Of a stretch of DNA of 32,842 bases, positions 1-32,523 are shown piece after piece. The stretch is from Ionaspis alba (lineage: Eukaryota): NCBI GenBank assembly GCA_964255285.1, contig CAXUUL010000098.1:1-32842 (forward strand), given 5' to 3'. Below the pieces are notes generated by a model that saw nothing but the letters and a program-made list of their open reading frames with translations, ran no database searches and was not told the DNA's origin. Position 1 is the stretch's first letter. The number at the start of each line of letters is the position of its first letter. Made by a program: the position numbers and the translations under genes.

Positions 1-602
1 GTGGGAGGGGGAGGGTTAGGAGCAGGGTTAGGGTCGAGGTTTGTGCGTGTAGGGAGGCGTGCATGAGCTGGAGTGGGGAGATTGTGTTAGCGGGTTCGAC
101 GAGTAGAAGGGGAAGCGAGCGAGAGGAAGGAGGACGTACGGCATCAGCACCGACATGGTTCTGCCAGCTTGCACAGTCGGGAAAGGACGTCGCCAGCAGC
201 TCTGCCACAGGCTCAGAGCTGGCGGCTGCGAGGATGAGCGGGGTGTCCCCGTCGGTGTTGCGCGAGATGCCGTCGTTTTCGTGGCCGGCTGCTATGAGGA
301 GTTTCTGAGAGCTGTTAGAAAGATGGATAATGTAGAGCGTGGTGTGGGAAGGAGAGGGGAAGTGGCATACTGCTATCTCAAGCAGGCCGAGCTTTGCGGC
401 AAGGTGGAGCGAGGTATTGGATTTATCGGCATAGTCAGGGTTCTTGAGGTGGTGGGGATTGTTCTTGATGATGCGGCGGAGGAGAGGGAGATCGTTGAGG
501 TAGATGGCACGGCGGATGCGGATGGAGACGCCGATCCTGAGGTTTGGCTCTTAGATTAAGTTCGTGGAGTAACGGTTGAGCACTGATGGAGACTACATAC
601 AT
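1..602 (-). CDS. AVO2: Ankyrin-repeat protein, TORC2 subunit Avo2-like (3' end runs off the window)
   Basis: Not in the ORF track. Spliced exons 602-601, 536-371, 304-140, 67-<1; introns 600-537 GTATGT..CAG, 370-305 GTATGC..CAG, 139-68 GTACGT..CAG. Translation MIGVSIRIRRAIYLNDLPLLRRIIKNNPHHLKNPDYADKSNTSLHLAAKLGLLEIAKLLIAAGHENDGISRNTDGDTPLILAAAS...GADALMHAS contains ankyrin motifs (NTSLHLAA, GDTPLILAA) and resembles the fungal Avo2 N-terminus. Confidence 0.75.
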
Positions 603-612
603 CGTCTGATCG

Positions 613-618
613 TTACAT
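613..618 (-). promoter_or_regulatory. Minimal uORF (ATG-TAA) / alternative 5' splice donor upstream of AVO2
   Basis: Minus strand reads ctcaccATGTAAcgatcagacgAT|gtatgt. The ATG is in CACC context and is followed immediately by TAA, 10 nt before the split main ATG. Confidence 0.5.
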
Positions 619-947
619 GGTGAGCAGTGGCCGTGTGAGGAGAAGGAACGGACTGGACTCGGGGAGCTGGTCGTCGTTTAAGAGCAGCTACGGTTAATTC
701 GTGGGCTACGCGGTTCGGGAGAGGTCAATATTTGTATGTTGTTTTATTATTGGGGGGCCCGCTGTTGGGCTAGCAAGCACCATGCAAAGCTTCTGCACCA
801 TCCTCGCCGCCCTCTCGATCGGAGGAGGTACCGTCTAAGAACACAGGGTGGTGAAAGCTCACAACTCCTCTCGTCCAGCATGCCCTATGCTGTTTGTTAT
901 ACAGGTGCAGTTGGCCCCAAGCACCATCGACAAATCCATGCTCAGCC

Positions 948-3004
948 TCACATTCCCTCAAAGTCGCCCCCAACATCATCGTCGTCCATCTCTCCATCCA
1001 CAATCTCCTTCGCAAGCTCCCGCTCCCTCTCACGTGCCTCCTGAGCATTTTTGAGTTCCAACCGGTGCTGGTTCATCGGAAATCTCATAGCCTGGGCTTG
1101 AGGTCAGCACATCGCTTTATTTTCTCACACCAATCTAACATACCTTGACACTCTCGTCGTGCAAGTTGAGACATGCTCTGATACGTTCATGGAAGGCTTC
1201 TCCTGGTTCCCGGGTGGCATAGATATCACCCACATCTTTGCTTTTCATGTAACCATGCTCGTGGTCCAGAGTAGCCTCAATAACTCCATCTCTTATAGCC
1301 TTGGCAACGATGTACTCTGCGGTCTCCTCGCTTGGCAGTCCTAATCTTAGACAGATATCCCTCAACGAGATTCTGGCGTATGAAAGTGACATCATGCGAA
1401 TACCGGTCTTGATTACATTCTGTCGCAGCCGAAGAATGAGAGTATAGGTACCATCACGCCGGAAATTATCGTTGTGGGACTGGACAATCTTAAGAAAACT
1501 GTCAAGATCCCCAACGCGAACAGCTTGCACTAGCTGTAAGTATGGTTCTAACGCACGTTCGAGGCTCGGCTGACGGAACGTTGCACGATCAGGAATGTCG
1601 CCCATAAGCAGCTCAACAATGATCAGGAGTTTGGTAGAAGCTTGGTAAAAGCCTCCTGCGCTGTGTGTAGATGGTGATTTGCGGGTGGCACTAATCAAGT
1701 GCTCATGCGCTTCGGTATAAGATAATTGTATTGCACGTATTCGTCCAAGGTAGTACAAGTACCGAGCAATTTGATTGTTCGAGGCGGCCGGAGGAAATTG
1801 AGAGTGTGAAATGAGTAGATCAGCCTGAGTAATATGGGAAGTAGATAAATAATTCCGTAGAAGTAAAGTCGTGACAGTAGCTTGGGTGTCCTGGTCTTTT
1901 CGAAGTACTGACGTTCGCAGAGCCGCGAGCAGGTTCTGCCGAATCGAGACTGCTGGAGACATAGGTGACGGAGGAAGAGGCGAGAGTTGTTCGAAGAATA
2001 ATGAGTAGTAGAAGTATACACGAGCAGAAAGTGCGTCGAGGGTCCGACGGTTGAGCGTACGCAACCTTTCCACAAGCTTACTCGAGAATGATGCACCCTG
2101 CTCGATAGCTTTCGCGTCATAGAGGTAGATCTGAACTAAGATAGAGAGGTATGTGTCGACTTCAGGCAGAATTTCCTTAGACGAACTCGACGACTTTCCC
2201 GAATTTGACCGGTCCCGAGTCTGCCCGTCAATCTCCATATCAGAATTGGAGGCTGCTGGTTTGAACGAGGCATCTTCCTTCCCGATGCCAGCAAGAAGCG
2301 ACTTTGCTATAGGACTGGATGAGGTATAGGTCTCCGTGATGACCTGTGTAAGGAGATCGGGAGAGAGATGTTTTCGGACCAAGGAAATTGAACGTAGGAC
2401 ACGCAGTGTAAAACGAGCATCGAACTGTGCAACAGCTTTCTCAAGAAGATCGAAGTTGGCTTTGATATCTTGCAAAGAGCAGTCAGCTTTCAAGCATATT
2501 CGGATCGTTGTCGCTTGATAACTCACCTGCATGGGCTTTGACCTTGGGATCTACCACTTCCGGGGCTTTATCAACTGCGTCTGTCTTTTCCGTATCGGCC
2601 ATTGCGACGTCTCCCTCAGAGTCCTTACCAGGTGCTGCAGCGAGCTTAGAGCTATTGGGAGGTGGTACAACAACAGTCATCTCGTCGTCGCCGTCTTTGC
2701 TTGATTTTAGCCGGCTTTGCTCCGCTAGGTCATCGCCCATCTCGACGTCTTCTGCACCATTCACACCATTTTCGACTAGTTCAGTACCGTTTGTTTTTGC
2801 TGTTTCACCGTTGGTATCTTTTGAGGACGTATTGGACGTGGTCTTCTTTGTATTTCCGGCTTTGCCCTTTGATGACGTGGTCCGCGCAGGTATTGGCTTA
2901 TCTTTATTGGACGTAGAGCTCTGAGAATCCGATCGTGCCTTTTCACCGTTGGTAGAAGAAGCAGACTCTTTGCTCGACCTAAGGTTCCTTCGCTCACCAG
3001 GCAT
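948..3004 (-). CDS. RPN3: 26S proteasome lid subunit Rpn3 (PCI domain)
   Basis: Exons 3004-2527, 2468-1144, 1091-948; introns GTGAGT..AAG and GTATGT..CAG. Motifs ARYLYYLGRIRAIQLSY, LLMGDIPDR, LRLRQNVIKTGIR, AEYIVAKAIRDGVI, FHERIRACLNLHDESVKAMRFP. Confidence 0.96.
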
Positions 3005-9629: not shown

Positions 9630-11143
9630 CTACCGTCCCAAGATATGACTAACCACACTTCTCTTCTTTCCCGTCTCCCTCTCACTGCCTCTAATCGGCA
9701 AACTAAACACACTCTTCTCCTTCTCCCCTTCGCCACCACCGCTCTCCCTTTCCCTCCTGTCCCGCCTCTGACTCCTAGACCTCCTACTCACATGGCCACT
9801 CCTCGAAGAAGACTTTGCACTCCTCTTCTCATCGGATCTCCTCTCGCGGCGCTCATCTTTCGACCCCGCCTGGCTGATACTATCGCTCGGTGCCACCGAC
9901 GCCAAATCGTCAATCTTCAGCGCTGGGCTCAACGCTCTAGGCCTGGCATCACCACTGGCACTATGGCTGTGACTGTGGCCGGATTTAGGACGGTCGTCCC
10001 GAGCTGAGAGGGACGTGTACCGAGACCCGGCGCGGCTGCGCGGAAGCGGAATATAGTCAGCCTGGGTGACTGTCTTCGTGGACGAGGTGTGGGAACGCGC
10101 TTTGCTGTGGTGAGAGGACGGAGAGCGCAAGGGCAGAATCTCTGAGTGTACGCTACGTGCGATGGAGGGGCGGATGGGTGGAGCCCGCGGGACTGGGCAA
10201 GCGGGGGCTTCGCTGGGAGGGGCGAACGTTTCGATGAGGGTGCTGTGGCGTGATGATGGAGGCGCTGCTTCGATATAACGATGGCGAGTGTGCGTGCTGC
10301 CTGGAGAGAGTGTTGAGGGGCTTTGTGGATGCGAGCGACGCGAGGAGGCTGTAGAGCGAGGGGTTGGAGGGCTTTCGATTGCCTGATAGAAAGCTGGACT
10401 CCAAGGAGTAGATATCCTTTCACGGGGAACGCTTTCTGACTCGGACTTCGTCATGGCGTATGCTATGGCGGCGCCGGCGGCTGCACCTAAGAGGGTGCCG
10501 ATGAATGCTTTCGAAGGGTCTGACTTTTGCTCAGTTGGGGTAGATGTGGTGACAGTTACTGGTGTGGTGATGTTGTTGACGATCATTTTGAGAGGACTTC
10601 GATCTGTGGTTAGGCCGGGGCTGGCGGTGCTTTTAGTGACATCTTTCTGCCAAGTCAGAACTCGACTGCCTTCGGCGACCAGGGAGCCAGTGTCTGATGG
10701 TATGGTGTTCTCTGTCTCTTTGTTTCCGCGATAGACAACTTCGATAGAATTGTCGTCGAAGTCGAAGACGGCAGCGCTGTAATACTCTGTCTGATGGTCT
10801 CGCACCGCAGGCTCGCCGTGAATACGGCCGCCAGCTTTGAGGGCAGCGACGAAGAAAGAGTCGACGACGGCACGGGATGGGGCAGAGAAAGCAATGTGTG
10901 CTGCTCCAGCTTTGGTGCTTCAGATATCAGGTATCAGTGATGGCTTTCAAGCAAAGGGCGCATCGAGAGAAAATACCCTGGAGATTCCTGGCAGATGAAG
11001 AAGTCCGCATGATCGATACCGAACCCGATTTGGTTACCTTGTTGACCGATATACCTGTAGCCTAGTGGTGAAAGTGCGGAGAGAAAGAACGAACAAGATG
11101 TTGGGAGATGAGACACTGTCAGGCCGATGTGAGAGATAGACAT
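9630..11143 (-). CDS. VOC/glyoxalase-bleomycin-resistance domain protein with long Ser/Arg/Pro-rich C-terminal tail
   Basis: Exons 11143-10977 and 10917-9630 (GTATTT..AAG). MSISHIGLTVSHLPTSCSFFLSALSPLGY...GTKAGAAHIAFSAPSRAVVDSFFVAALKAGGRIHGEPAVR...YYSAAVFDFDDNSIEVVY is a typical VOC pattern. It is followed by the hydrophobic segment FIGTLLGAAAGAAIAYAM and low-complexity sequence. Confidence 0.82.
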
Positions 11144-13676: not shown

Positions 13677-16328
13677 TCACGTCCCTGGCGGACTCCCGAG
13701 CCAGTCTGGCCTTTCCTCTTCCACCATGACTCCGCTGTTCCGACCAGCACTGCTCCCTTGACTGCTAGGTCTAGCAGGACTTTCAGACTTCCTAGGACTG
13801 CCGGATATTGATGCTACGCGCTGATTGAGATTGAAAGGTACTTGTATCGCAGGAATTACCATTTCATTGAACCTTTCCACTCCTGTTGCGATAACGGGGC
13901 CTGCTTCGGTCTTTGCTTCCTCTTCCACAGATTCCGCCGGTACGAGTTTCATCTGAGCAGTCCACCTCTGTATCAGCTGTCTCTTGAGACGCGACCACCC
14001 TCCTAAACCATCGAACTGATCTTCGGTATTTTCGGTCCGGATTGTTTTCTCAGGAGCACTCCAGTATACAATGAGCCACCATTTCCATCGCTGCAGCCTG
14101 CCTTGGGGTACAATATACGGGCGAGGCCCAGTGCGTGACCAAAGTAATGGATGTGCTGTAGCCAGTTGATAAAACAGTTGTTCGTATATCCCACGAGAAT
14201 AAGGAGTTTGTCGCGATCGCTGGATAGAGTGCTTGAGAATGAACCAAGAGGCCAAAACCACCACCATTAGTGGTACAGCTGATATAAAGAGCCACATAAT
14301 GCTAGGGTTGTTGGCAAAAGTGTCAACATTGGTTCCAAATACGCCCACAATGAAAGTCAGTGGCAGAAAGACGAAGGTGATGATGGAAACCAGATACATG
14401 CTCATGCTCATGTGCAGCGAGTGGCGTGAATCTCGAATGCCCACAGACTTGTACATCAGGTCAGACAAGTTGTTGATTGGCTTGACCAAGTCTTCTTGGA
14501 CAAGGTTGTTCAATTTCTCAAAGTCTCCGGGACTGGATTCGAGCCAATCCTCTGGTGAGTTGTCGGCTATTTCTCTGAGATTGGCCTGTAATTCTTTGAT
14601 TATCGTCTTGTGTACGAACATCAGGCGCTCCACAGTCAGAAACATGCTGCCGTTTATGATGAGTTCGTTCTGACGGGATTCATCCGCTGGTTCGGCATAG
14701 ATCTTGTCTTCGAGAATCCCCACGTGATGACTGGCAACGTCCAAAAAAGTGTCCCAGGATCCAGCTAAGGATTTCCAAACATCCTGTATTACTAGTTTTG
14801 CGCACATCAGCGCCATCTCCTCGTCGCTTGCGATGTCTTGAGACTCCCACGCAAGGTAGAATGGCAGCCGCCGCCACCTTGCTTCGATCCGACGACGTGC
14901 AGGAATCATCGTGTCTTCTATGGACCCGAACTGCGAATTCTCAAATATGATGATGGTATTGCAATTATCAAGGCTGTCTAACTGTGGGAAATATGCGTTG
15001 GGGCCACGGTGTGTATGATCATTCTCATATGGACTCGGAATGTCTGGATCGATAGGGATATCTGAGCTCAGCTCCTGATGCTGAATATAACAGCTCTGTA
15101 TATTGTCCGTTAGATACATTCTTGAGCTGGCAAGTCGATCAGGGCCGATGTCATACCACTCGCTGGGCGTAAACATCATATCCGTAAACGGGGACATCAT
15201 CTTGATCATACCAATTCAACTCCATCACTTTGTCGGAAGTATCTGGGTTGGCTTGGGCAGCGGGATCTCGAGCACGATAGGGTTTCAAGTAATCCATTCC
15301 AAAAGCACTGATTGAAAGCTTCCGCCAAGGATCGTGCACTGTCTTATAGGACTTAGCAGTCAATGAAGGTTTACCTCCATGGCGTCGTGGACGTTTGCAT
15401 TCGACAAAACGGGCAAAGTCAGTGCCAACCAGATCGTTCCTAGCATTGATGTTGAACTTGCGGAGTAGAAACTGAGTGGCCCAGTCGGCGTTCTGAACGT
15501 GAAATACCCGAAGCATAGCATCCTCTCGTCTCGATGGCTGAAGCTATTAGCCGGATTCGAAAAACAGAAAATGATATATTTACATTGTGGTAGAGCTTCC
15601 GGAGACCTTCAACATCTTCGATTTCTTGAGCTGCCACCTTTCGAGTGGCCTGACGAGGATCTGTTGACGAGTCAGCAAGAATTACTCGGATTTTTAGGGT
15701 GCAGTCAGACCATGTTTAATATAGTCCACTACAAGCACACGTCCTTTCTTTAGGTTTGCAGCGGTATAGTGCTTGTACCATTTCAAACCAGGACTCCTTG
15801 GCCTTGCATGCCAGGCTACTTTGATTTAAGCAGACCGTCTATGAGTGGGAAGTGGCAGCACGAACATCTCTGTTTGGGAGGGTAATGTAAATGGGGATCC
15901 TGAACGTGGTAACGATCTTCGAGGGTACTCCGAACTTCGGGTGCTGAATGGTTGGATCCTAAGATCATGATCAGCAATAGTCGCAGTTTCGGTATTACAA
16001 TCGTACCTCTACTTTCTGATCTCCCTTCTTGGCTGAATCTAGCTGTCGTGCTTAGATTTGGCCATCCGCCTGCTGGACTCCGCGGCTCCATGATTCTGCG
16101 TTATTTTGTCCATACACAAGTAGTGTAAACAGAGGAGGTAGAGAAGCATCTTCACTGTGATATGTACGGACTCGAAGAGTCACAGCTCCCGAGGCGGCAG
16201 GCAACCTGCCGTGCCTCGTGGTCATTCCCATGTCATGCGGCTCATTCATCAGTCACTAGCGCGCGGCAGGACAAACAAACATCTGTATCTACGCGAGAGA
16301 ATCGTGTAAACTTCGTCCTGGGCTTCAT
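13677..16328 (-). CDS. Fungal CorA-like (2TM-GxN) membrane protein; 5' exon structure uncertain
   Basis: Last exon 15095-13677 has a coiled-coil stalk then YLVSIITFVFLPLTFIVGVFGTNVDTF and a second TM (WLFISAVPLMVVVLASWFIL). Five clean upstream introns link it back to LSTTARF (~16050). The probable start MKPRTKFTRFSRVDTD at 16328 cannot be joined cleanly (see findings). Confidence 0.75.
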
Positions 16329-16768
16329 GCATATTGTTTTGTCTCCTTTCTCGCAAGGCTGGAGAAAGAATGATACAGAGGCTGATAGCTCGGTCGATCG
16401 AACCTTAAGAGATCTTGATGCGTGCTCATCCTACGGGGATATTCTGATTGTTTTCCATTCAGGGATTGTGTTCCGGATGACCCGAAGGACGAGCATATAC
16501 ATCACCCTTACGGCCGTTTGTGACACTGTAATGGCTCGTGTAGATTGTGCGGAATCTGTGTCTCTTTGGCGGTCTGCTTCGCTCCTGTATTCTTGGAGGA
16601 GACCCTTACCACGTCACTTGTTATTCAACACCCCGCAGTCTCCCAGCAGGCTTTACCCAGGACAGACTTTTGCTCAAACCGATATATACCACCTTCATGT
16701 GTCCATGAATGAAAATATACTCATCTCACTTTGCTCCCGTTTCTCGTGATCCTCTTAGGAATGGAACC

Positions 16769-17541: not shown

Positions 17542-17856
17542 GTCAAAGACGAGTTTGTTCAGTTGAGATGATATATTCTCCTGGAAAGGGGGCAGTGATC
17601 GAAGGGATAGTTGGGTACGACATGAATACTAAGGGAGCCGATTGTTAGCCAGAGGGTTGGAGAGGGCACTGGGATGGAGATGTACCATTGATGGATAGGG
17701 TTCTACAGATGTAGGATATTTTTACTCGCAGAAACTTCTTCGCGTTCCCAGCCTATCCATGTATTCCCAAAACGTCAATGCTGGCAAATATCGTACCTCC
17801 CGGCTTGTACACATGCCAATCATAACAGCGTGATCATCCCCGAGACGATTACCTCT

Positions 17857-19493
17857 TTATACATCCAACATACTCTTCACCTGCTGCGGTCGACTCCGAC
17901 TCGCCGTCGTGCTGATCGTCATCTGACTCATCGCTCGTCCCGAGCTCTCGCTGTCCGACAACGACAGAGCAGGTCTTTGAACTGCGTCATCAGCACTCAG
18001 ATGTCTATCCCTTGCCGAATCTTCTTCGCGATCTCGGAACGGGTTCTCGTTCTGACTGTCATCTCGAGGACGAATGGGCATATTCCCCAGCTCGATCTGC
18101 CTTTCAAGATTCCGGCTTGTAGCCCTCCCTCCTCCAATTTCTCTTGTCATATCTTTCAGCCCCTGTGCAGGCGACATGCGATGTTGGAAGCCCAAGCCTC
18201 CGCCCCACCACCAGGGCCGTCGATGACGGGGATATCCGATCTCGGCATCTATAGTATGGCCCCGCTCGATACGTTGGCGAATGAGCTCTCGATCTTCGTT
18301 TGGGTCGACGAAGCCGAAGACCTCGTTGACGACGATGATGAGTACGATGGGCGCATAACCTAGACCATAGAGCCATCCTTCATTGTTGTTAAGCTTTCCA
18401 AAGTTGAGGTCCCAGAGGAAAGAGCTAGCCGCAGCGTAGGCAACCACAACCAAGAGGAGAGGTATCGTCAGAAGGAACCTCAAGGGAACGGAACGCCAGA
18501 AACCTATGAATCGACTGAAGACTCCGCGATTGCGTGGTTTGTAGAAATGGACAGAATGGTGCAACGAGTAACACATCGTGCACCAGGCAGCAAAAGCAAG
18601 GAAAGCGGCTGCTTTAAAACGGACGTCTGTTGCATTAGGCTTGGCAATGTCATTGACCTGTTGATTTGTAGTCTGGGCGTCAAATGGAGTCCAATTCCGA
18701 GGAATATTCATGAAAAAATTCTGTGGAGGGCTTCAGCATCTGCCAGCACTTTACTGCTGGAAGAACTCACAAGCCAAGCGAAGAGGTAGAATATCAGAGG
18801 CATGTAGAACTCTTCCCTTGACCTCCTATCGTTTTGACGCAACGCGTTCGGATCTTGGTCGTAAAGTTGACGTTCTTGCCAGGAGCCCCTGGTAGCATTA
18901 TCAGTCATGCAGCACTACAACGGGGTGTCCTTGGCCTACCAATGCCGTACACCTTCCCACACAGTAGCCAAGATACCAGGCATCATCAAATAGAAAAAGA
19001 AATTCTGAAGAATGATAGCAAGACTCTGAAGATAGTCCCGGTCCACGTCAACGGCCGAAACGCAACTGATGATACCGCAAGCAGCAACAAAAAGCATCCA
19101 ATACCACTGCCATCGCCTTCCAATGGCATGGAACCTCTTCTCGTTCGGTAGAAATAACTTTCCATGTTTCCGCAGATTCACCAGTGTAAACATGATCGAT
19201 GCAGCGAAGAAGCATGCGAACACAATCCCTAAACTCCCCCTCTTCTGTATGCCATACCATGGATAGTAACATGTCGTCCCGTTGATGAATGTTCCGTTCG
19301 ATAAGAGCACTGGATGCAATTGCGGGAAGGTGAGGTAACAGTCTGAGCCGTTGGACAGCGTGTGATTATCGTAGAGTGTGTAGTTCCAGTAATTCAGAGT
19401 CGTTCGATTGAAGTGCGCTCCATTGATGAGGACGTCGGAGGAGTTCTCACCCTGTGGGAAGGATAGCTCTGCCCGAGGGTAGAAGAGATGCAT
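17857..19493 (-). CDS. Conserved fungal multi-TM membrane protein (DUF2434-like)
   Basis: Exons 19493-18940, 18888-18771, 18720-17857. Motifs HFNRTTLNYWNYTLYDNHTLSNGSDCYL, LRKHGKLFLP, GRRWQWYW, DVDRDYLQ, WEGVRHWGSWQERQ, NEDRELIRQR; several TM helices. Confidence 0.82.
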
Positions 19494-20549
19494 TATTGCT
19501 GTTGAGGAGCAACGGACCCCAGATTCAAACAATATAGAACACGGCTATGTCCCGCTTTAAGGTGCGGCCTGATACGAATATCGCTCAAATGATGCGTAGC
19601 ATAGGATTGATCTTGATCTTTCAGAGGGGTGTACCAGACGCGGATTCGAAGGATCATGCGATATGTAAGCCGGCCCTGCCGGAAAGCCTTTCGATGGTTT
19701 GGCACATTATCAAATGGCCTGCCGGGGTCAGTCTTGTGCTAAGTGAGGAAGAGAAGACGCGCTGTCACAGGATCTACCTTTGGAAGCAGAGCCTTAGTGT
19801 ATGTACAATGCTTTTCGAGCAACTGAGCCACTGTTTGCCTAAAGCGTATGACGCCCTTCAGTGTCGGACGTCGGGGTCTGGGGATCCGTCATTCCGATGA
19901 GTGCTGAAAGAAGACAGCACCTCGCAATATTTAGCGGCCTGATCGTAGTGAAAAGCCCATTTTCGTCGCTAAAGCTCGGGTGGTTTAGTCTACTAAACAT
20001 TAACGACGCCCCACTCCTTGGAAACGGCTTCACGATTTTGTAGCTGACGTTTACAATTACCGTCGCTTGAGGTTATTCGATGCAAGCTCTAGACAGTGCT
20101 ATATGTATGTATGGGCCACCGTTCCACGATGAAGACTGGGAAGAGGTTTCGTCCCATGTTCCTTCAACCTGGTCGCAGTTGGCTACAGATCTCTACCCTT
20201 TCCGGAGAATATCATAATTGACTCGATTTATGGTTCAGCGAGGTCTCAATAATGCCCAATCTCCCCTCTTCTTAAAATGTGTCGAGAGGATTCCACAGTG
20301 ACTCAAGTTTCCCCTCGTAAGGACAGGCAATTCCGTAGGCAGCAGGAGCCCTGCGCCGCATCCAACCATCGAGTCGATCGTGCATAAGCAGGTGAGTGGA
20401 AGTGCTAACTGAAACATCCTGTTGCTACTCAGGATCAGAATTGTGTCCCTTCCTAGCAACATAAAAACCGCTTGCTATTCATTTGATCTTTCGAATTCAC
20501 TCCTTCATACTATCTACTCTAGGTCCAAGAGATATATCTCTCCTTCACC

Positions 20550-21383
20550 ATGCATACACTCAGGACTCTTGAAGGGAACACAATCGAAGAGATGCTGAAT
20601 CCGCCCTTCCGGAGTGTGAACTTTGATGACGAAGCTGCCATCGTTCAGGTCAGCACCCATCTACGGCTCGCGTGGACTGCTCTACCAGGCGACGATACTT
20701 CCATCGATGCCGTGGGATGGTTTACGAGAGATAGCAGTTACCGGACAGACGAAGAACGGAAGCTAGTTCCACAGAATCCTAACAAGGACGACTATCGTAC
20801 TGCTTGGCGGGAATCTGTTTACCACATGTGGAATCATGTCTTCTACGATGTGATGCGTTTCCTACCTGAAGTGGGCATGGGCGTGGGACATATCCATCCG
20901 CCATCCCATGACGCTTTTGCAATGGATTATCCTCAGGTTGGGGACAGTAATGGGAGCGTTGCGGTGAAGAAGAAATGGGACACTAATGTGTTGATCGTCC
21001 CGGCTTTTTTGGAACCTGGTGTCTCGATTCGAATGTTTGTTAGTCAAGCTAGCGAGAACGGGCAGTCGCAGAAAACGCTGGGATCTTTCGACGGTTTCAA
21101 TACCGCTGATATCTGGTGGCTTAAGAGTGGCGTTGAGGTGTGCTTTTATGTCGAAGGTGACTACGAGAAAGATCGCAAAGGCGTCGCTGCGGTCTTGGTC
21201 TACGGGATACTATGCATGGAGAATAGCGGAGCAGGGAAGAACGTCAACAGGGCTGCCGTCGACACAAAGGACAGAAATGGCGAAACTGGAGATGGAAAGG
21301 ATGCATTGATCGTAGAACGCCTGAAGGGGGCTCGGATCGTCGGAGTTGGTCCAGGATCGCAGGAGCACGGCAACGCCGCCTGA
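20550..21383 (+). CDS. Hypothetical protein, 277 aa, single coding exon, no family recognised
   Basis: ATG in ttcaccATG context after a CT-rich leader; long uninterrupted ORF with globular composition. Confidence 0.65.
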   Translation: MHTLRTLEGNTIEEMLNPPFRSVNFDDEAAIVQVSTHLRLAWTALPGDDTSIDAVGWFTRDSSYRTDEERKLVPQNPNKDDYRTAWRESVYHMWNHVFYDVMRFLPEVGMGVGHIHPPSHDAFAMDYPQVGDSNGSVAVKKKWDTNVLIVPAFLEPGVSIRMFVSQASENGQSQKTLGSFDGFNTADIWWLKSGVEVCFYVEGDYEKDRKGVAAVLVYGILCMENSGAGKNVNRAAVDTKDRNGETGDGKDALIVERLKGARIVGVGPGSQEHGNAA

Positions 21384-21639: not shown

Positions 21640-22822
21640 TCAATTCCCGGACTTGCCCTCGGCTTCCTCAATCTCATTCATCCTTTCCATTGCAAGCTTA
21701 GCGCGTTGTCCAGCCTCCTGCCCAACCTGCTCGCTTAGCTCCCCGAATCGCATTTTCCAAAAATCCCATCTCTCTTTGCAGAAGCCTTCTCCCTTCCCTG
21801 TGTACAGGATTCCACGCTCCGGCCTTGGTTGATCGAACGGCTCGCAATCTTTGTGGCAGTTGTGGCCGGTGGATACCGCAAAGAAGACGTCTCCGCTCTG
21901 GATAATCCACTCTGCTGCGACGATGAGGTCACACTCTGCAAGCATCTGGGCCCGATCAGAGTGCTCGAGACCAAAGACCAGCTCTGTAAAAGGCCAGTTG
22001 CTATTCCAGAATGCTAGCTCTTTGTGGAAGAGCCTGGCTGCAAAAGAATTGAAGTTGAACCATCTTCGTATGCTATCCTCTGATGGAATTCCGGGCATAT
22101 CTCGTGAAGGTGCTATCGGATTCAGCAATTAGCTTCTATTTTGACTGTTTATGACCTCGACAGGGGTCGTCAGACAAAGAGACAGGAAACTTACAAGCAG
22201 CGTCTTCCCATATAAGTAGCCCAAACAACGGTAAATCTGTCCAGACGCAACAATCACTCTGTTACAACCCTTGTCAGCCATAGCTTTAGAGCCTTCAACA
22301 AGGAAAGTGGCATTTATTTACATAACAGATGCAATAAGTCCCTAACGAGATTCGACTCAGCTCCTCCACCATCAGTACCAAATTTGATTGGCCTTCAGGA
22401 TGATTGTACGGCACAAGATCGGCGACCATCTCCAGCATTGACCAGAAAAACCACAAGAAGGTCTCTGCTTTTTCCCCGGTCTTGTGGCGTTTCATGTACG
22501 CCTTTTTGGCGCTGTCGGAGGCATTCGATGGTTTCGCTTTACTAAGGTCCTCTCCTTTGACAAGGTCCGTTTCATCACGTTTGCCGTCTTTCTCTTGTTC
22601 TGTGTCCGGGTCGGTTTGATCTTCTTCATCCTTAGCCGGTGTGGACACGAACTCTTGAAATAGTAAGTTGGCCTTATGTGCTGCCGTGGCCGGAGAAATT
22701 TTGCAGCTATCGCCGTCAGGTCTTAGAAGAGCGCTCAAGATGTCAAGCACCCGCAGATCCCTGTCTGAAAGGTCCTTGTCCTCTGCGAGAGACGAAAGGT
22801 CAATCGTTTCCGTGCTCGCCAT
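21640..22822 (-). CDS. DUF3632-like alpha-helical protein
   Basis: Exons 22822-22322, 22258-22195, 22112-21640 (an alternative in-frame ATG lies at 22837). Motifs FLWFFW, LVPYNHPEGQSNLV, VWTDLPLFG, WFNFNSFAARL, VAAEWIIQSG, GFCKERWDFWKMRF, AMERM. Confidence 0.82.
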
Positions 22823-22927
22823 GTTTGCACTTTGCATTCATGTATGACAGCGGCGTCTGGGAATGTTTCGGTAAATATCTCACACTACTGCGTCGTACTT
22901 TGGTTCTGGATCCTGTTTCGCTCGAGA

Positions 22928-22956
22928 ACGATCTTAGACTACGATCTTAGACTACG
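22928..22956. repeat. 13-bp perfect tandem duplication (ACGATCTTAGACT)x2 + ACG
   Basis: acgatcttagact acgatcttagact acg read directly, ~105 nt upstream of the DUF3632 ATG. Confidence 0.8.
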
Positions 22957-23110
22957 GGAGCACGAGCTCTTTTAAGTCCAAAAATTTCTCTGCACTCATT
23001 TGGGGCACCATACCTGTTTCCGCTTGCAGCATTCCAAGGTAAAACAATGCAGACGCAAACATCCACCGTCCTTTGTTGCCCTAGGCTGAATTCGTCTGCT
23101 TATCGAGTTT

Positions 23111-23398
23111 CTTTATACTCTTTATGAACGGCTATGTCTCAGACACTCATGTCCCAATGTATACATTCATTCCACCGGCAGTTTGGGGCCAGGAGCCCGG
23201 ACCTCCTCCTCGGTCGGAGCTGTTGCACTGTCGAACAGGGTGTCTAGGGGTCTTGGAGAGGTAGATGTTCTCTTTGCTGGTATCTGAGCTGAACACTTTG
23301 TGTTAAACATATCTCCAAGACACGAAAAGTGCTGTATTACTTCAAGTCAGATAGATGAAGAGGATCCGCCTAACAATTCTATCTGCCTATCTATAAAG
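23111..23398. promoter_or_regulatory. Divergent promoter with two outward-facing TATAAAG boxes
   Basis: TATAAAG on the minus strand at 23117-23111 (towards DUF3632) and on the plus strand at 23392-23398 (~140 nt before the RNase ATG at 23540). Confidence 0.45.
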
Positions 23399-23539
23399 CA
23401 GGGCATTTTCGCCCACCTGATGATGCATTTCTCCTGCTCTTCATACACTCTAGTAGCCGGCCTTACAGATCTTCATTCAATTTGGACAAGAACAGACGGC
23501 TCCCGCAGACAGAACAGCCATCAAAAACCGAGACCTCCG

Positions 23540-24464
23540 ATGCCTTCGCCGAAGGACAGAAAGTCTGCAATCTCACCCGCCTTATCTAATGCATCCAACG
23601 AATCATACGTGAGTAACCTCTTTGAATCCTATTTCCTCGAATCGTACTGACGTCTTTACCCAGTGGTCCAATCAGGGACTGGAGGATCAACATCCACTAA
23701 GACGCGTTAAGAGAAGCGCAGCCAAGAAAGCTGTAGATGAAGCAGGGGAAGAACTCAAAGTGCGACGTGGCTATCCAAAGTTGTTCCATAACAACGAACG
23801 TCTCCCCTTGAGGGCTGCGGCTGGCGACATCAGAGAGTTTCCGCTCCTCCCCAACATGACCTGGCAGCGTGGGACTAAACCTGAGCTTGTCCGTGTGCTT
23901 TACCCGAGTAACAAGAACGACAAGGAAATAGACGTGGTATTTCATGATCCTCGTCTTGCGCACCGAGGGCCGAAAAGAGACTTCTCGTTGGGAGTGCTTC
24001 ATTCAACGTCTCAATCGCAAAGCAAAGCTTCATCCGCTCAAATGGAACATGGTGTAGGAGGCAGTGAAGCAAGAGTGCAAGCTAGCTCTGGGTCTCCGGA
24101 TCCGTCGAATCTTTCAGTCCATTCCGCTCCTTTGATGAGTGCCGCCGCTTCGAGCATTCCCATGGCTCCGATCAGTCCCACGGCTTTGTTCAGTCCCCCG
24201 CCTCCGGCCAGTCCCATGTCTTTGATCAATTCCGTGGCTTCGATCAGTCCCACGGCTTTGCTCAGTCCCCCGCCTCTGGCCAGTCCCACAGCCTTGATCA
24301 ATTCCGTGGCTTTGGTCAGTCCCACGGCTTCGATCAGTCCCACGGCTTTGGTCGCTCCCCCATCTTTGGCCAGTCCCACCATTTTTATCAGTCCCTCGAC
24401 TTCGAGCGGGACTCCCACCTCGCCAACTTGGCAAGGTCTTCCAGAATCAATGGAACAGCACTAA
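23540..24464 (+). CDS. Non-secreted microbial ribonuclease (RNase T1/ribotoxin, BECR-fold) with Ser-Pro hexad-repeat tail, 289 aa
   Basis: Exons 23540-23608 and 23664-24464 (intron GTGAGT..CTGAC..CAG). GYPKLFHNNERL, REFPLL, PELVRVLY, DVVFHD and DF parallel RNase T1 YPHKYNNYEG, YEWPIL, PGADRVVF, GVITH and F in order and spacing. Confidence 0.72.
24117..24404 (+). repeat. Coding 18-bp minisatellite (consensus ATCAGTCCCACGGCTTTG) with 72-bp higher-order unit
   Basis: 13 clear units from 24171: ISPTAL FSPPPP ASPMSL INSVAS ISPTAL LSPPPL ASPTAL INSVAL VSPTAS ISPTAL VAPPSL ASPTIF ISPSTS, plus 3 degenerate upstream units. Confidence 0.92.
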
Positions 24465-25227
24465 TTCGAGAGTCTGGGACGAGAGGCCACATGGGAAGCA
24501 AACAGAACGATGCTCTTTCCTGCACCTCTGGTAGGAGAGCAGGCGGAAACAGCACCTAGCAGCCGTGGGCAAATTTGGCCTTGACCCCCATATCTTTAAT
24601 GTCGGGAGTTGTTTTTGTTTGTTTTTGTTTGTTATTGCTTTTTGGGTATTTTTACCTTGCCTCTGGTTTGATAATAATGTTTGTTCGCTCAAGTCTGTCC
24701 TCGAGTCGTGGTTTTGGTTCCTAGGCGGGCAACTTTGTACTGTACAACATCCTTAATTACATAGCTAGACTGTCATTCTTGAGTAAACCGCTGATGCGTT
24801 CGTACACCATCTCCTCCTCTATTATCGTTACATAATGAGCATTCATCACGATCTTTCAGACTCCGTCTCGTAGTTGATGGCTTTTGCCATATCACTCCCC
24901 TAGCAGCCTGCCGGCTTCTTCCACTCACCTATTTGTTGACTCTTATACAGGGGGTGAAAAAATGCTATTGTGCATCATCGAGCGGCTCAGCAACTATGTG
25001 AACGATTGTGCCCTGAATCATTACTTTGCTCCGTTACCTATGATCTAATATGCAAGAAAATCTACTGGATGCGAGTAACGAGCCTGACGTTGCTTTTCCC
25101 ATCCGGCGCCATGGTTGAATATGCAAGGGATGAAGACCTCGAAGCAAATAGCCCAACCGACAAATATCACGTAAAAGCCACCGAATTGCGAATGTTAAAG
25201 CTTCCTCAATATCAAGATTTATACAGT

Positions 25228-28200
25228 TCAGAAAAGTCCGTCGATCTCTCCAGTCTCTGGGTCAACATCTACGTTCAAATATCCAGGAGCAGTAGGTAAT
25301 CCAGGTATTGTCTGAATGTCGGCAGCCAAAGCATAGCTACGCAAGTCAGCATGGATCTCCTGGCTGATGCTTGATACTTACAGGTAACCGGCGCCCACGG
25401 CTAGCCTGACGTCCCTGATCGGAACCGTGAAGCCCGTGGGTGCTCCCTTCAGCGCTGGGTCATGGCTGAGCGAATATTGTGTCTTTGCAATACAGATCGG
25501 TAGGTTCCCGAAGCCCTGCTTCTCATACGTATCGACCTTCTTCTGGGCGAGTTCGCTGAATTCGACTTTGTCGGCTCCATACATGATCTTGCCAATGCGC
25601 TCTATCCGATCTTGTACACTCCCAGTTGTGTCGTACAGTAGCTTGAAGTTTTTCTCCTTGGAGCTAGCTGCTATGACTCCCTTTGCGAGGTCGACGGCTC
25701 CCTTCCCGCCTTCCGCCCAGTGATTGGCGGGAATAGCATCTTCTGCGCCAGCAGCAAGAGCCTCGTCGCGGATAATCGCTATCTCTGCTTCAGTGTCTGA
25801 TTCCATCTTGTTAATGGCCACGACAACAGGGACGCCGTACTCTCGGGCATTGGAGATGTGCTTCCGAAGATTGATACAACCCTTGCGAAGGATATCGACA
25901 TGTTCTGTTCTGTACACTTCGTGAAGTGCTCCACCTGGGGTGATTTCCGGGCCACCACCATGGACCTTGAGCGCACGAACAGTAGCGACAATGACGACGA
26001 CATCGGGGACAAGACCCGAAGAACGGCATTTGATGTTGAAGAATCTCTCCCCTCCCATAGTGAAGTCGAAGCCAGCTTCTGTCACGACGAATCCAGTCTT
26101 CTCATTATGATCTTCATCGGTCTCAGTACCTGCCAGTTTCAGAGCAAGCTTGTCCGCCAAAACGGAGCTGGCACCGATACTGATGTTTGCGAATGGTCCG
26201 GCATGGACAAAAACTGGAGTACCTTCCAGTGTCTGCATCAAATTTGGCTTGATCGCGTCCTTCATCAGTGCCGTGAGAGCACCGCCAGCACCAATATCGT
26301 CACAAGTTACAGGATCGCCACCCTTTGACGTTGCGACCACCATTCTACCAAGTCGTTCCCGCATATCTCCAAGATTGTTGCTCAAGGCCAGAATTGCCAT
26401 GCACTCGCTGGCAACAGAAATGTCGAACCCAGTCTCCCTTGTATGGCCTTTCTCGGTAGGTGCTTGACCAACAGTAATACCTCTAAGATGACGGTCATTA
26501 ACATCGAGAACTCGTCTCCATGTGATGGTCTCCGGATCTATATCTAGTCTAGCGAACTTCGTTATCTCTTCTGGAGTCAATTCATCAGGGTTGGTCTTCG
26601 TTATGCCTAGCTTTTTGAGCCTACGGAACATAATGGGTTGAAACTCTCGCTTCCCTTTCTTTGCAGGTACCAAACGTTTGTAGAGCGCGCCATCCTTCTG
26701 TGTCGATTCATGAAACATCCTAGTTTCGATAGCTGCAGCTAGGAGATTGTTGGCCGCAGAAATAGCATGAATGTCTCCAGTGAGATGCAAGTTGAACTCG
26801 TCCATAGGAATGACCTGACTGTAACCTCCCCCGGCTGCACCTCCTTTGATTCCAAATGTAGGTCCCTGACTTGGCTGCCGCACATTTGCGAAGGCTATAC
26901 GGTTCAGGTGTCCTCCAATTGCCTGTGTAATGCCCATGGTAGTCGTTGATTTTCCTTCTCCGAGAGGTGTCGGGGTGATACCTGTAACAAGAACGTAACG
27001 TCCGTTACGGCGATGACCTAGTCGCTGTAGAAGATCCAAGTCGACCTTGGCCTTGTACGCTCCATAAGGTTCTAGTTCATGAGACGCAATTCCGACCTCA
27101 TCTGCAATCTGTGTGATCAACTTGGGACGCTGCGATCTGGAGACTGCGATGTCTGAGGGAACGGGACTTTGTAATTTTAGCGGTAGTGGCCGTATATGTC
27201 TGGCCTTCTGTCTTTCGAAGTAGGTGGTGGCAGAATCGACCACATTTTGCAGGAGCATAGCAACAGTCATGGGACCGACTCCACCAGGAACAGGAGTAAT
27301 CTTTGATGCGACTTCGGCAGCTGATTCGAAATCCACATCTCCAACCAATCTTTGCCCAGATTTCTTGGTATCATCCGGGATGTAATTGGTACCAACATCA
27401 ATCACTACCGCACCCGGCTTCAGCCAATCGCCCTTAACAAAGTTGGGTTTCCCAATTGCAGCAACCACGATGTCTGCCCTTTTGACGTAGTCCTCAAGAC
27501 CTTCTGTCCGCGAATGGCAGACAGTGACAGTGGCATCGGCGTTCCTTAATAGGTAACTGACTGGACTGCCAACTATATCACTTCGCCCAAGGACCACTGC
27601 GTTTTTGCCTTTCAATTCGACATCGCTCTCCTCGAGTAAGACCATGACTCCCTTAGGAGTGCAGGGTGTGAATAGTGGCTTCCCTCCCTTCTTAGCCAAT
27701 TCTCCTATGTTGATAACTCCAAAACCGTCCACATCCTTTTCATCTGCCACCGCTGAAGTCACGGCATGCTCCGAAATATGCTTAGGCACGGGCAGTTGTA
27801 CCAAGATACCATGTATTGAAGGATCATTATTGAAGCGGGTAATGTTCTGAAGTAACTCCGGCTCGGTGATGGACTCCTCATAATGGATGAGGTTGCATGT
27901 GATGTCCGCCTCTTCAGCAGCCTTCAATTTCATGCGAACATAGGTGCTGGAGTCGGACCGGTCCCCAACTTGTATAATGATCAAAGATGGCTTGTAACGT
28001 GGATTGGCAGCTTGTGTCTTCTTGATTTCACCACTAATTCTTTCCCGTATGGATTTAGCAATGGCCGTGCCATCGATCTTTGTAGCAGTCATCGTGACGG
28101 TACTCGAAGAGAGAGACCGGTTGGCATGAAAGGTGAACGACTGTAGGCTGGGAGAAATGGTCCTAGAGCCAGTTTTTCTATGTACGAGCGGGGTGCAGAG

Positions 28201-28392
28201 TCTCGAACGTGAGTGTAGGATTGAGGCCCGTAGGCTCGAGTAGGATCGGACAGCCAATGCGAGAATTGAGTGTGAAAAATACGGCCTGCCGTGGAACGAA
28301 TGTTGGATTGGCAAAGATTTATTCCGGTGAAGTAATTGGCGGCGGAAGATCAACACCCTAGGGCTGCGACACGCTGTCTTGGAGGATTTCAT
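25228..28392 (-). CDS. ADE3: Trifunctional C1-tetrahydrofolate synthase (Ade3/Mis1 type); core start 28092 with in-frame N-terminal extension
   Basis: Exon 1 ends at 25382, intron 25381-25337, last exon 25336-25228. Motifs KDVDGF, PCTPKG, GRSDIVG, TPVPGGVGPMTVAML, TPTPLGEGKSTT, GIKGGAAGGGYSQ, HAGPFANI, TEAGF, ICIAKTQYSLS, IQTIPGLPTAP. Confidence 0.96.
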
Positions 28393-28398
28393 CTTCTG

Positions 28399-28404
28399 TG
28401 ACTC
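28399..28404. promoter_or_regulatory. TGACTC (Gcn4/CpcA- or Bas1-type) site in the ADE3-TIF34 divergent promoter
   Basis: TGACTCT ~310 nt upstream of the core ADE3 ATG; a short motif that may occur by chance. Confidence 0.3.
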
Positions 28405-28701
28405 TTCACCCAAGGTCGTACATGTGACATAGGCATTCTCGCCCCTTTCGATATCCCGTCAACGGAGTGGACACAATATCTACGCCATATTCTAGTCTCA
28501 TTCCAGCGCCTGTTCCTTTTTGCCTCTGCGGCCCAAACCTAGATCTTAAGCCAACCGCCAGTCCAGTCATCTTTGCGCAGGAGGCCAAAAAAAAACCCGC
28601 CCACCTAATTCTTTCGCTTGCGGCTCGCGCCAAATCACGCCCGGAATTACGCAAGGTTCAAATCCTCGCGCCCTATTCCACTCCACAACCCACGTTTCAC
28701 T

Positions 28702-30290: not shown

Positions 30291-31711
30291 ATGAACGTAC
30301 TCTCCCCATATACGTCCCGCCGATTCGGAGCTTTCCTCCTCCGCCAGTCCTGTTGCCCATCTCCGCTCTCCTCGAATTGCCCAAGAATACTCCAAACAAT
30401 TTCCTTCCCCTCGAGAAGCATGTCTTCAATTCCCAAAATCAAAGTCAAGAACCCCGTCGTCGAGCTCGACGGGGACGAAATGACGCGCATCATCTGGAAA
30501 GACATCAAAGACAAATTCATCCACCCATACCTCGACATCGACCTCAAATACTACGACCTAGGCCTACCGTACCGGGACGAAACGAACGATCAAGTTACAC
30601 TGGATGCGGCTGCGGCGATCAAGGAGCATTCCGTGGGGGTGAAGTGCGCGACTATAACACCGGATGAGGCGAGGGTCAAGGAGTTCAAACTCAAGAAGAT
30701 GTGGTTAAGTCCCAATGGCACGATTAGGAATTATCTGGGAGGCACCGTCTTCCGAGAGCCGATTGTTATTCCACGGATCCCGAGACTGGTGCCGGGGTGG
30801 AAAAAGCCGATTGTGATTGGAAGACATGCATTCGGTGACCAGTACCGGGCGAAGGACCTCGTTGCAAAAGGTGCAGGGACACTGGAAATGGTCTACACGC
30901 CCAAGGGTGGGGAGCCGGAGCGGATTAAGGTGTTTGATTTTGCGGAGGACGGAGGAGTTGCCCAGACGCAGTATAATACGGACGAGTCGATAGCGGGTTT
31001 CGCGCATGCAAGTTTCAAGCTGGCGTTGAGTAAATCGCTGCCGTTGTATATGAGTACGAAGAATACGATTTTGAAGAAGTACGATGGGAGATTCAAGGAC
31101 ATTTTCCAGGCTATCTACGAGAAGGATTACAAGAAACAGTTCGAGGCTAATGGGACTTGGTATGAGCATCGGTTGATTGATGATATGGTCGCGCAGATGA
31201 TGAAGAGTGCTGGGGGATATGTTATGGCTCTGAAAAGTGAGTTGGCCCTCGAATCTTGTCATGGTTTCTTGCAGCTGATGATTTAGACTACGACGGTGAC
31301 GTTCTCTCCGACATTGTCGCCCAAGGCTTTGGATCGCTGGGACTCATGACCTCCGTGCTCATCACGCCTGACGGAAAGACCTACGAATCGGAAGCGGCTC
31401 ACGGGACTGTAACCAGACATTTCCGAGAACATCAGAAAGGAAAGGAAACTTCGACAAACCCCATAGCTTCAATATTCGCCTGGACAAGAGGACTGGTGCA
31501 ACGAGGGGTTCTGGACGAGACGCCGGAGGTAGTTGCATTTGCGGAGAGTCTTGAGAAGGCATGTGTGGACACGGTGAACGAGGATGGCATCATGACCAAG
31601 GATCTGGCCCTGGCATGCGGGAAGACCGAGAGGTCGGATTATGTGACTACGACTGAGTATATGAATGCCGTGGAGAGGAGATTTCGGACGAACTTGAAGG
31701 CGAGACTTTAG
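30291..31711 (+). CDS. IDP1: NADP-dependent isocitrate dehydrogenase with mitochondrial presequence and C-terminal PTS1
   Basis: Exons 30291-31236 and 31287-31711. Motifs [70 protein letters not shown]; ends KARL*. Confidence 0.96.
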
Positions 31712-31991
31712 AAGGTAGGCTGGGTTTCTTGTATATAGGATCATATCACAAAGGCAGATCGCATATCGATGATCTGGGCAACTCAAAGAGATTTTTACTC
31801 GAACCTCAGCGTGGTTGTCATAGCTTTCGTATCGTACCGACACAATCATCTATTTCTATCAATGCCGCCTGCACTCCAAAAGCCAACAGTCACACGCCTT
31901 CGAACTCCCTGATAGCAGACCGACCGCCTCGAAGTCCCCTTCAGACCAGTCGCCCATCGTTGATATCAAAGCCATCTCTCGATTCATCCGC

Positions 31992-32523
31992 TCAGTGCTT
32001 ATCAGGTAACGGCTCTCCCGTCTTGGGACTAATCTTCAAGACCCTGGCCACCTTGTTCAGTAGTGCCTGGTTCTTGATCGCCGTCCCGCTCTCCAACAGC
32101 TTGATATCATTCGCCTGCGCATTGACCTTCTGAGCTAGTTGCGCTTGCGTCAATTTGAATCCCTCCTGCGCTCGGCGATTCTTGATGGCTTCGGCGATCT
32201 TGGTGTCCAGTTTCTGCGGAGCGACGATGTCATCGGAGCGGTCGACTTTTGTCAGGCGTTGGCCTTCGCTGCCAGATGCTTTGTTGGACTTTTGCGAGAT
32301 AAAGTGTCAGTAGTGGCATTCTGGTGATGATTGAGCGAGGGCTGCGGAAATGAGATAGACTTACGGTATTTGCAGATGCGAATTTCTTTTCCGTAGCGAC
32401 GATGGCGCCGGAGCGTTGAGCAGCGTTCAGGGCACCTTTGCCTCGCACGACGGTTTCACGTTGGCCGGCGCCGCCTTTGGAGGATTTGCTGCCGATTTTG
32501 GTAACGGTGTCCCATTCATCCAT
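31992..32523 (-). CDS. MBF1: Multiprotein-bridging factor 1
   Basis: Exons 32523-32365 and 32288-31992 (GTAAGT..AAG). [11 protein letters not shown]...ALNAAQRSG...TEKKFASAN...[13 protein letters not shown], then [14 protein letters not shown]...ESG. Confidence 0.94.

Follow-up and report, generated by a model that had tools for sequence, protein, structure and literature searches.

We analysed a 32,842-nucleotide (nt) stretch of fungal DNA of about 50% GC, contig CAXUUL010000098.1 of Ionaspis alba (the window), and found on its forward strand a two-exon gene for a ribonuclease (RNase) of the N1/T1 family. We consider it fairly probable that the product, a protein of 289 residues without cysteine and with an isoelectric point (pI) of 9.55, belongs to a distinct clade of RNase N1/T1 proteins spread across the Pezizomycotina, that it is neither secreted nor disulfide-bonded, and that it is an intracellular, probably active guanine-preferring endoribonuclease. 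RNase T1 is the textbook secreted enzyme, and work on the fungal family has dealt nearly exclusively with extracellular enzymes, ribotoxins and effectors of plant pathogens. The gene had been noticed in a first-pass annotation, which proposed a nuclease of this fold with neither signal peptide nor cysteines. Its parts are listed below, with residues numbered within exon 2 from position 23664; this numbering puts Tyr37 at 23772, Lys39 at 23778, Glu58 at 23835, Arg77 at 23892 and His94 at 23943.

23540..23608, forward strand: exon 1, with ATG start and 23 codons; polar N-terminus, the last three residues (E-S-Y) opening the RNase domain
23609..23663, forward strand: 55-nt intron; 5' site GTGAGT, branch point CTGAC 13 nt before the end, 3' site CAG
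23664..24464, forward strand: exon 2, starting with W-S-N-Q-G-L and ending at the TAA stop
23664..24002, forward strand: RNase N1/T1 domain (PF00545), exon-2 residues 1-113 (about 21-136 of the protein), from Pfam, PDB profile, AlphaFold2, fold searches and conservation
23772-23798, forward strand: guanine-loop motif Y37-P38-K39-L40-F41-H42-N43-N44-E45
23835-23837, 23892-23894 and 23943-23945, forward strand: catalytic codons of Glu58, Arg77 and His94
24003..24461, forward strand: C-terminal tail of about 151 residues, with no Pfam match and a pI of 5.3
24462..24464, forward strand: stop codon TAA, read from the sequence

The RNase T1-type fold was recovered at the level of the family, of the profile and of the predicted structure. 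The PF00545 model scored 25.8 bits against the whole exon-2 protein and 28.3 bits against the 120-residue domain (curated cut-off, 24), and NCBIfam gave no match at E ≤ 1. A search of the PDB with the query sequence alone was marginal, with RNase T1 at E 0.64. When a profile from the alignment of the relatives found by exhaustive HMMER search (A1) was used, RNases T1 and F1 were matched at about E 1e-9, Po1 and Ms at 1e-6 to 1e-7, U2 at 1e-4 and restrictocin and alpha-sarcin at about 5e-3; no bacterial RNase was matched at E ≤ 1. The profile alignment sets the family motif Y-P-[KH]-x-F-x-N-x-E on Tyr38-Pro39-His40...Asn44...Glu46 of T1, E-[FYH]-P on Glu58-Trp59-Pro60, and P-G-x-x-R on Pro73-Gly74...Arg77. 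AlphaFold2 reached a predicted local distance difference test (pLDDT) score of 42.7 without an alignment, and of 92.1 with A1 (35 sequences), at a predicted template-modelling score of 0.85. The resulting model has a helix at residues 17-26 and strands at 56-60, 76-81, 90-94 and 107-109, in agreement with the alpha+beta architecture of microbial RNases, in which a long helix packs against an antiparallel sheet.

Comparison of this model with known structures gave the same answer. The best 40-odd Foldseek matches in the PDB were all T1-type RNases, and VIA-align superposed residues 1-111 of the model on residues 4-104 of T1 with Z 12.1 and a root-mean-square deviation (rmsd) of 2.3 Å over 95 residues. 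RNases T1, F1, Po1 and Ms as a group gave Z scores of 11.4-12.1 (rmsd 2.3-2.5 Å, 95-97 residues), compared with 9.9 for alpha-sarcin, 9.4 for hirsutellin, 8.3-10.0 for the RALPH effectors of powdery mildews and 4.4 for RNase Sa. Based on the Z scores and the profile E-values, the nearest kin of the domain are the fungal T1-type enzymes and not the ribotoxins or the bacterial RNases. Taken together, these results confirm, within the limits of a predicted model, that the domain has the RNase T1 fold. The first-pass annotation had named this fold and had proposed AlphaFold with Foldseek as a check; the microbial-RNase fold was indeed predicted, with the best matches to RNase T1, above alpha-sarcin and hirsutellin.

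The active site also corresponds to that of T1. The residues that had been named as equivalents of T1 Tyr38, Glu58, Arg77 and His92 agree exactly with the codons given above, and the lysine that had been placed at the His40 position is there (Tyr37-Pro38-Lys39). In the model, strand 56-60 has Glu58 in third place, strand 76-81 has Arg77 in second place and strand 90-94 closes with His94, which mirrors RNase Po1, whose Glu54, Arg72 and His87 are assigned to strands 52-56, 71-76 and 82-86 in excerpts of PMC11487538. The Glu and the Arg were matched to T1 by the profile; the equivalence of His94 to T1 His92 was drawn from motif and strand position, not from a residue-level structural alignment. 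The guanine loop reads Phe41-His42-Asn43-Asn44-Glu45, compared with Tyr42-Asn43-Asn44-Tyr45-Glu46 in T1; across the family the Tyr42 position is aromatic (Phe in 47 sequences), and the Asn43 and Tyr45 positions vary. Since a His40Lys mutant of T1 is partially active, according to the title of PDB entry 2aad and excerpts of PMC11487538, lysine at this position is not disqualifying.

The first-pass annotation had regarded the protein as an oddity, which did not hold, as it belongs to a broad family with 55 relatives. Exhaustive searching of 1.84 billion cluster representatives with HMMER yielded 34 relatives (E ≤ 1e-3, and E ≤ 1e-10 for four), which are 31-51% identical. A word-indexed search with the single protein found no homologue at E ≤ 1e-3, and a word-indexed profile search added 21 further relatives, bringing the total to 55 (25-51% identical). 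Identity to the nearest relative recovered is 47-49%, according to the alignment used. The source genera are Penicillium, Teratosphaeria, Melanomma, Chaetomium and other Chaetomiaceae, Podospora, Nemania, Fusarium, Cosmosporella and Arthrobotrys, which we take to span the Eurotio-, Dothideo-, Sordario- and Orbiliomycetes. PF00545 matched 26 of 35 aligned family sequences at E ≤ 0.01. Databases already tag most members with PF00545 (precomputed in 22 of 25 profile-search matches), and the named relatives are all called "hypothetical" or "uncharacterized" with the exception of one automatic name in Fusarium; the clade itself is uncharacterised.

Conservation was counted over 56 sequences including the query. 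The Arg77 position is Arg in 55 and Lys in one, and the His94 position is His in all 54 sequences that cover it, the other two being truncated there. The Glu58 position is Glu in 45 sequences, His in five, Ser in four, and Lys and Asp in one each. In the guanine loop, the Asn44 equivalent is Asn in 50 of 56 and the Glu46 equivalent is Glu in 46 of 56. These counts show that the Glu-Arg-His set, as far as sequences can tell, is under evident constraint across the family. The His40 position is divided (His 25, Lys 23, Arg 3, Ser 3).

The clade differs from T1 in several features of its own. Two Arg residues precede helix 1 (Arg in 37 and in 30 of 41 covering sequences), and a Tyr-His-Asp-Pro motif is a further hallmark (Tyr in 51, Asp in 45, Pro in 44); neither has a T1 counterpart. 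The loop from the catalytic His to the last strand, in which His-Asp-Pro is near-invariant, is mostly 11-14 residues long (12 in the query), compared with about 7 in T1. Long disordered extensions occur at one or both ends: those of at least 40 residues are N-terminal in 21 and C-terminal in 15 of the 55 relatives, and are of low complexity (acidic, Ser/Pro-rich or Gln/Asn/Tyr-rich).

When 54 rows were placed in a maximum-likelihood tree, after removal of two short ones, the query grouped with P0003, P0004, P0006, P0007, P0008, P0037 and the Ser58 subclade at a limited support of 84/67. A trio with Ser58 (P0005, P0014 and P0015) is monophyletic with support of 100/100, and a quartet with His58 is monophyletic with 98/84, so the changes at Glu58 are inherited states and not random decay. 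Both the Ser58 subclade and the sequences with His at this position (P0012, P0017, P0027, P0030 and P0031) keep the Arg77 and His92 equivalents, and these replacements of Glu58 may reflect altered chemistry. The His58 subclade has Ser or Arg at the His40 position.

We next consider secretion, using the mean Kyte-Doolittle hydropathy of 9-residue windows, a heuristic that is not SignalP. The maximum was 0.78 for the start at 23540 and 1.34 for the one in frame at 23420; the cores of signal peptides lie far above either value. Among the 14 ATGs in 22838-23600, a hydrophobic stretch follows only that at 22844, which opens the divergent neighbouring gene some 700 nt upstream and is an unlikely source of a signal because an atypically long intron would be needed. 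Across the family, no window exceeded 2.01 in the first 40 residues of the 56 sequences, and the intron-aware NCBI models of relatives begin with long hydrophilic extensions. RNase T1 has two disulfides, and RNase Po1 has three according to excerpts of PMC11487538. Classical disulfides are not possible in the query, and in the family Cys never occupies the T1 Cys103 position, which is Ala in 39, Gly in 12, Ser in two and Pro in one of the 54 covering sequences; a lone Cys is kept at the Cys6 position in 10 of 56. The claims that neither start gives a classical signal peptide and that the protein has no cysteine were therefore both borne out, and the query and its clade are predicted to be non-secreted and disulfide-free.

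The gene model was supported by the relatives. A scan of 23400-24470 for a canonical 5' site, branch point and 3' site found 23609-23663 as the sole canonical intron, with a second in-frame acceptor at 23675. Removal of the intron rebuilds a string of nine residues, ESYWSNQGL, that is unbroken in relative P0014, and relative P0005 has ESYYSNTGL behind a polar N-terminus of 22 residues that resembles that of the query in length and character. This agreement supports both the intron and the start codon. One upstream feature bears on the choice of start:

23392..23397, forward strand: TATAAA box-like hexamer, 23 nt before the in-frame ATG at 23420 and 143 nt before the ATG at 23540

Its position suggests that transcription would start at or beyond the ATG at 23420, in which case that at 23540 would be the first usable one.

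The first-pass annotation had also read a basic patch (R-R-V-K-R-S-A-A-K-K...K-V-R-R) as a possible nuclear localisation signal. In the AlphaFold2 model the patch spans the end of the first strand, the helix 17-26 and the loop before Tyr37. Because it is part of the folded domain and contains the Arg-Arg that is a hallmark of the family, the patch cannot be assigned as a dedicated localisation signal, and this claim was not supported as stated; import into the nucleus is still compatible with a patch inside the fold. The domain has a pI of 9.84, and RNases are usually basic.

The tail is 60% Ser/Thr/Pro/Ala, carries 13 Ser/Thr-Pro sites and is presumably disordered. Most of it is repetitive:

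24130..24395, forward strand: tandem repeat, 18-nt unit in 14.8 copies
24163-24341, forward strand: higher-order repeat, 72-nt unit in 2.5 copies

Across 24038-24559, the 18-nt repeat keeps stretches of 110-157 codons free of stops in four or more of the six frames, on both strands. Since several frames are open on both strands, the length and openness of a reading frame are no evidence of coding in the repeat, and translation of the tail follows solely from the lack of a stop or an intron after the domain. The tails of relatives (0-151 residues) are not related to that of the query and are acidic or Gln/Asn/Tyr-rich. In P0053 and P0057 (Fusarium) and in P0006 the C-terminal tail abounds in Gln, Asn, Tyr, Pro and Ser and resembles the low-complexity regions of prion-like or RNA-granule proteins.

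A repeat that stays open whether or not it codes would also be expected if the gene were an unexpressed relic or a chance reading frame. We consider this very improbable, since the reading frame is intact, removal of the intron rebuilds a conserved motif, the catalytic residues that are invariant in the family are all present and the fold is predicted with confidence. The composition of the tail bears on another explanation, that the protein is an extracellular RNase, exported by an unconventional route or from a signal exon that was missed, with the tail as an O-glycosylated stalk. The tail is stalk-like and is the only hint of unconventional secretion; the characterised fungal T1 RNases and ribotoxins are all known as secreted proteins, and relative P0057 carries the automatic name 'Extracellular guanyl-specific ribonuclease Fl2'. 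However, the N-terminus of P0057 is polar and acidic and not signal-like, the tails of the relatives do not resemble stalks, and a strong hydrophobic window at the N-terminus is missing from all 56 family sequences. No signal-like segment follows either ATG of the query or lies in a spliceable upstream open reading frame (ORF), and cysteines for disulfides are absent. An extracellular enzyme thus seems quite improbable.

Several points weigh against an active intracellular enzyme. An unregulated cytosolic RNase of the T1 type should be harmful, and no inhibitor was found at the locus. The secretion test is the hydropathy heuristic described above, the Ser/Thr/Pro repeat tail may be likened to the O-glycosylated stalks of secreted fungal proteins, and the match of His94 to T1 His92 depends on motif and strand position in the model. 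The His40 that adjoins Tyr38 in T1 is not present, with Lys39 in its place; the query has Glu at the near-invariant Gly74 (23883-23885; Gly in 52 of 56 and in T1) and Phe at the near-invariant Tyr93 beside the catalytic His (23940-23942; Tyr in 51 of 56). Because of the change at His40 and these two departures, catalysis could be weak. Lastly, two subclades have His or Ser instead of the catalytic Glu, and the family thus appears to tolerate altered chemistry.

The same substitutions count in favour of a pseudo-enzyme or RNA-binding protein, in which the T1 scaffold binds RNA or nucleotides and catalysis is lost or vestigial, as in the RALPH effectors. Structures of these effectors fit the fold well (AVRA10, Z 10.0; AVRPM2, 9.7; BEC1054, 8.3), and an inactive protein is easier to square with a cytosolic location. 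In contrast, Arg77 and His94 are essentially invariant, and between 45 and 50 of the 56 sequences retain Glu58 and the guanine-loop Asn and Glu, which is an enzyme-like pattern; the Z scores of about 12 for T1-type enzymes exceed those of 8-10 for the RALPHs, and T1 itself stays partly active with Lys in place of His40. We regard a loss of catalysis as unlikely, although by no means negligible.

For an active intracellular RNase, the residues suggest a mechanism. The protein would stay in the cytosol or nucleus and bind single-stranded RNA, recognise guanine through the Y-P-K-x-F-x-N-x-E loop and cut 3' of G by transesterification, with Glu58 as the base and His94 as the acid. Arg77 and Lys39 would stabilise the transition state; Lys39 would take over the electrostatic role of His40, less efficiently, and the rate would probably be reduced. 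The lineage-specific Ser/Pro-rich tail, with its 13 sites of the proline-directed phosphorylation type, most likely lies outside the enzyme proper and serves in regulation or localisation. The cell could be protected by an inhibitor, by low or conditional expression, by the attenuated chemistry or by a narrow choice of substrate.

We compared the protein with known systems. Like RNases T1, F1, Po1 and Ms, the query has the equivalents of Tyr38, Glu58, Arg77 and His92 together with the Asn and Glu of the guanine loop; it differs from them in having no signal peptide, no cysteines and Lys for His40. The ribotoxins alpha-sarcin, restrictocin and hirsutellin A, which are secreted and disulfide-bonded, share the superfamily fold with weaker scores than T1, and their long basic loops and N-terminal hairpin, which target the sarcin-ricin loop, are probably absent from the query, to judge by domain size (120 residues compared with 130-150). 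The RALPH effectors are secreted and lack the catalytic residues, whereas the query family keeps Glu, Arg and His and is not secreted. Barnase and RNase Sa belong to the same broad microbial-RNase superfamily but are remote. A cell that makes barnase needs protection, which the cytoplasmic inhibitor barstar provides; no barstar-like partner gene was identified at the query locus. Ageritin, a ribotoxin-like protein of mushrooms, and the cytosolic rice ribosome-inactivating proteins are described in several reports as RNA-damaging enzymes without a leader that are kept inside the producer (PMC8068006, PMC7582721, PMC6628440, PMC7867109). Their folds and chemistries are unrelated to those of the query, and the analogy with the query is conceptual only. 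No description of a non-secreted T1-type RNase was found in the literature searched, which did not extend to subscription-only sources; the papers retrieved dealt with secreted effectors, with immunotoxins or with other subjects. A Colletotrichum SRN preprint gives a PF00545 tree with signal peptides marked, and the portion of it that was available does not discuss the members without one.

A clade that has shed signal peptide and disulfides and kept Glu, Arg and His would point either to controlled cleavage of RNA inside the cell or to a new use of the scaffold, and either case raises the questions of what the substrate is and how the cell is protected. The family also offers a natural series of active-site variants, with His or Lys at position 40 and Glu, His or Ser at position 58, and a disulfide-free T1 fold could be of use in protein engineering.

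The surroundings of the gene were examined in the window and in metagenomes. The 17 longest ORFs of the window were scanned with Pfam and encode mainly housekeeping proteins: Rpn3, UDP-glucose dehydrogenase, TAF12, a CorA transporter, eIF3i, an isocitrate/isopropylmalate dehydrogenase and a fungal DUF2434 protein. The two flanking genes are as follows.

25378-28458, reverse strand: C1-tetrahydrofolate synthase gene, convergent with the RNase gene
21640-22837, reverse strand: DUF3632 gene of two exons, divergent from the RNase gene across a shared intergenic region of about 700 bp

A hidden Markov model (HMM) of the RNase family found a single copy in the window. A metagenome scan with alignment A3 gave no loci, and one with a Sordariales-type alignment (A4) gave six, of which five were accepted; the sixth (L006) was rejected as spurious, with 17 residues at E 3e-4 and no match in the family HMM scan. 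In three of the five, copies stand in tandem on the same strand:

L001, 2-487 and 2381-2833, same strand: tandem pair
L002, 7402-8307 and 9929-10336, same strand: tandem pair
L005, 5018-5416 and 6530-7856, same strand: tandem pair

In these pairs the upstream copy has a long N-terminal extension and the downstream copy is short. The second copy of L005 runs across three frames, from frame breaks or sequencing errors, and the copy of L004 is split between two ORFs.

Because the family diverges fast and has tandem duplications, our leading guess for the role of the enzyme is conditional cleavage of RNA in stress, development or conflict; fast divergence, patchiness, tandem duplication and a decayed copy fit a conditional or conflict gene better than a core housekeeping enzyme. 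A stronger claim, which the first-pass annotation had proposed, is that the RNase is toxic to its own cell and brings about cell death in allorecognition, antiviral defence or meiotic drive. The divergence and patchy distribution of the family, the tandem duplicates with one frame-broken copy and the analogy to cytosolic bacterial toxins of related folds are in line with it. At locus L002, a NACHT (NPHP3_N) gene (224-1231, reverse strand) and a HeLo-domain gene (1493-2709, forward strand) are situated upstream of the RNase pair at a distance of 5-8 kb, a proximity that occurred at one locus only and may be coincidental. The copy in the window, however, is single and stands among housekeeping genes, no NLR, HET or HeLo gene was detected among the 17 long ORFs scanned there, and PADLOC gave no match at E ≤ 1. 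Longer fused forms, including fusions of the NLR or HET type, were not found in the search with alignment A2, which is weak evidence, and as far as these few loci show, no partner is conserved between clades. A self-toxic executioner is in our judgement distinctly unlikely.

A broader version of the intracellular enzyme may be put forward as speculation that is clearly more likely wrong than right: an ascomycete clade of live cytosolic or nuclear T1 RNases, restrained by an inhibitor or by phosphorylatable tails and released upon stress, infection or contact with non-self to cut cellular or viral RNA such as tRNA or rRNA. If true, the clade would be a eukaryotic intracellular counterpart of the barnase-type toxin systems of bacteria, and the subclades in which Glu is replaced by His or Ser would represent re-tooled chemistries.

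The divergent DUF3632 neighbour was considered as a candidate inhibitor and is without support in that role: none of the 111 ORFs at L002, L004 and L005 contains DUF3632, and literature abstracts on the domain neither hint at inhibition nor indicate a known function. Thioredoxin and short-chain dehydrogenase genes neighbour the RNase genes at both L002 and L005. No Rfam family reached its gathering score anywhere in the window. Five long ORFs of the window had no Pfam match at E ≤ 1e-3, at 9630-10919 (reverse strand) and, on the forward strand, at 16129-16749, 17692-18363, 20523-21383 and 31657-32133; that at 17692-18363 overlaps the DUF2434 gene on the opposite strand.

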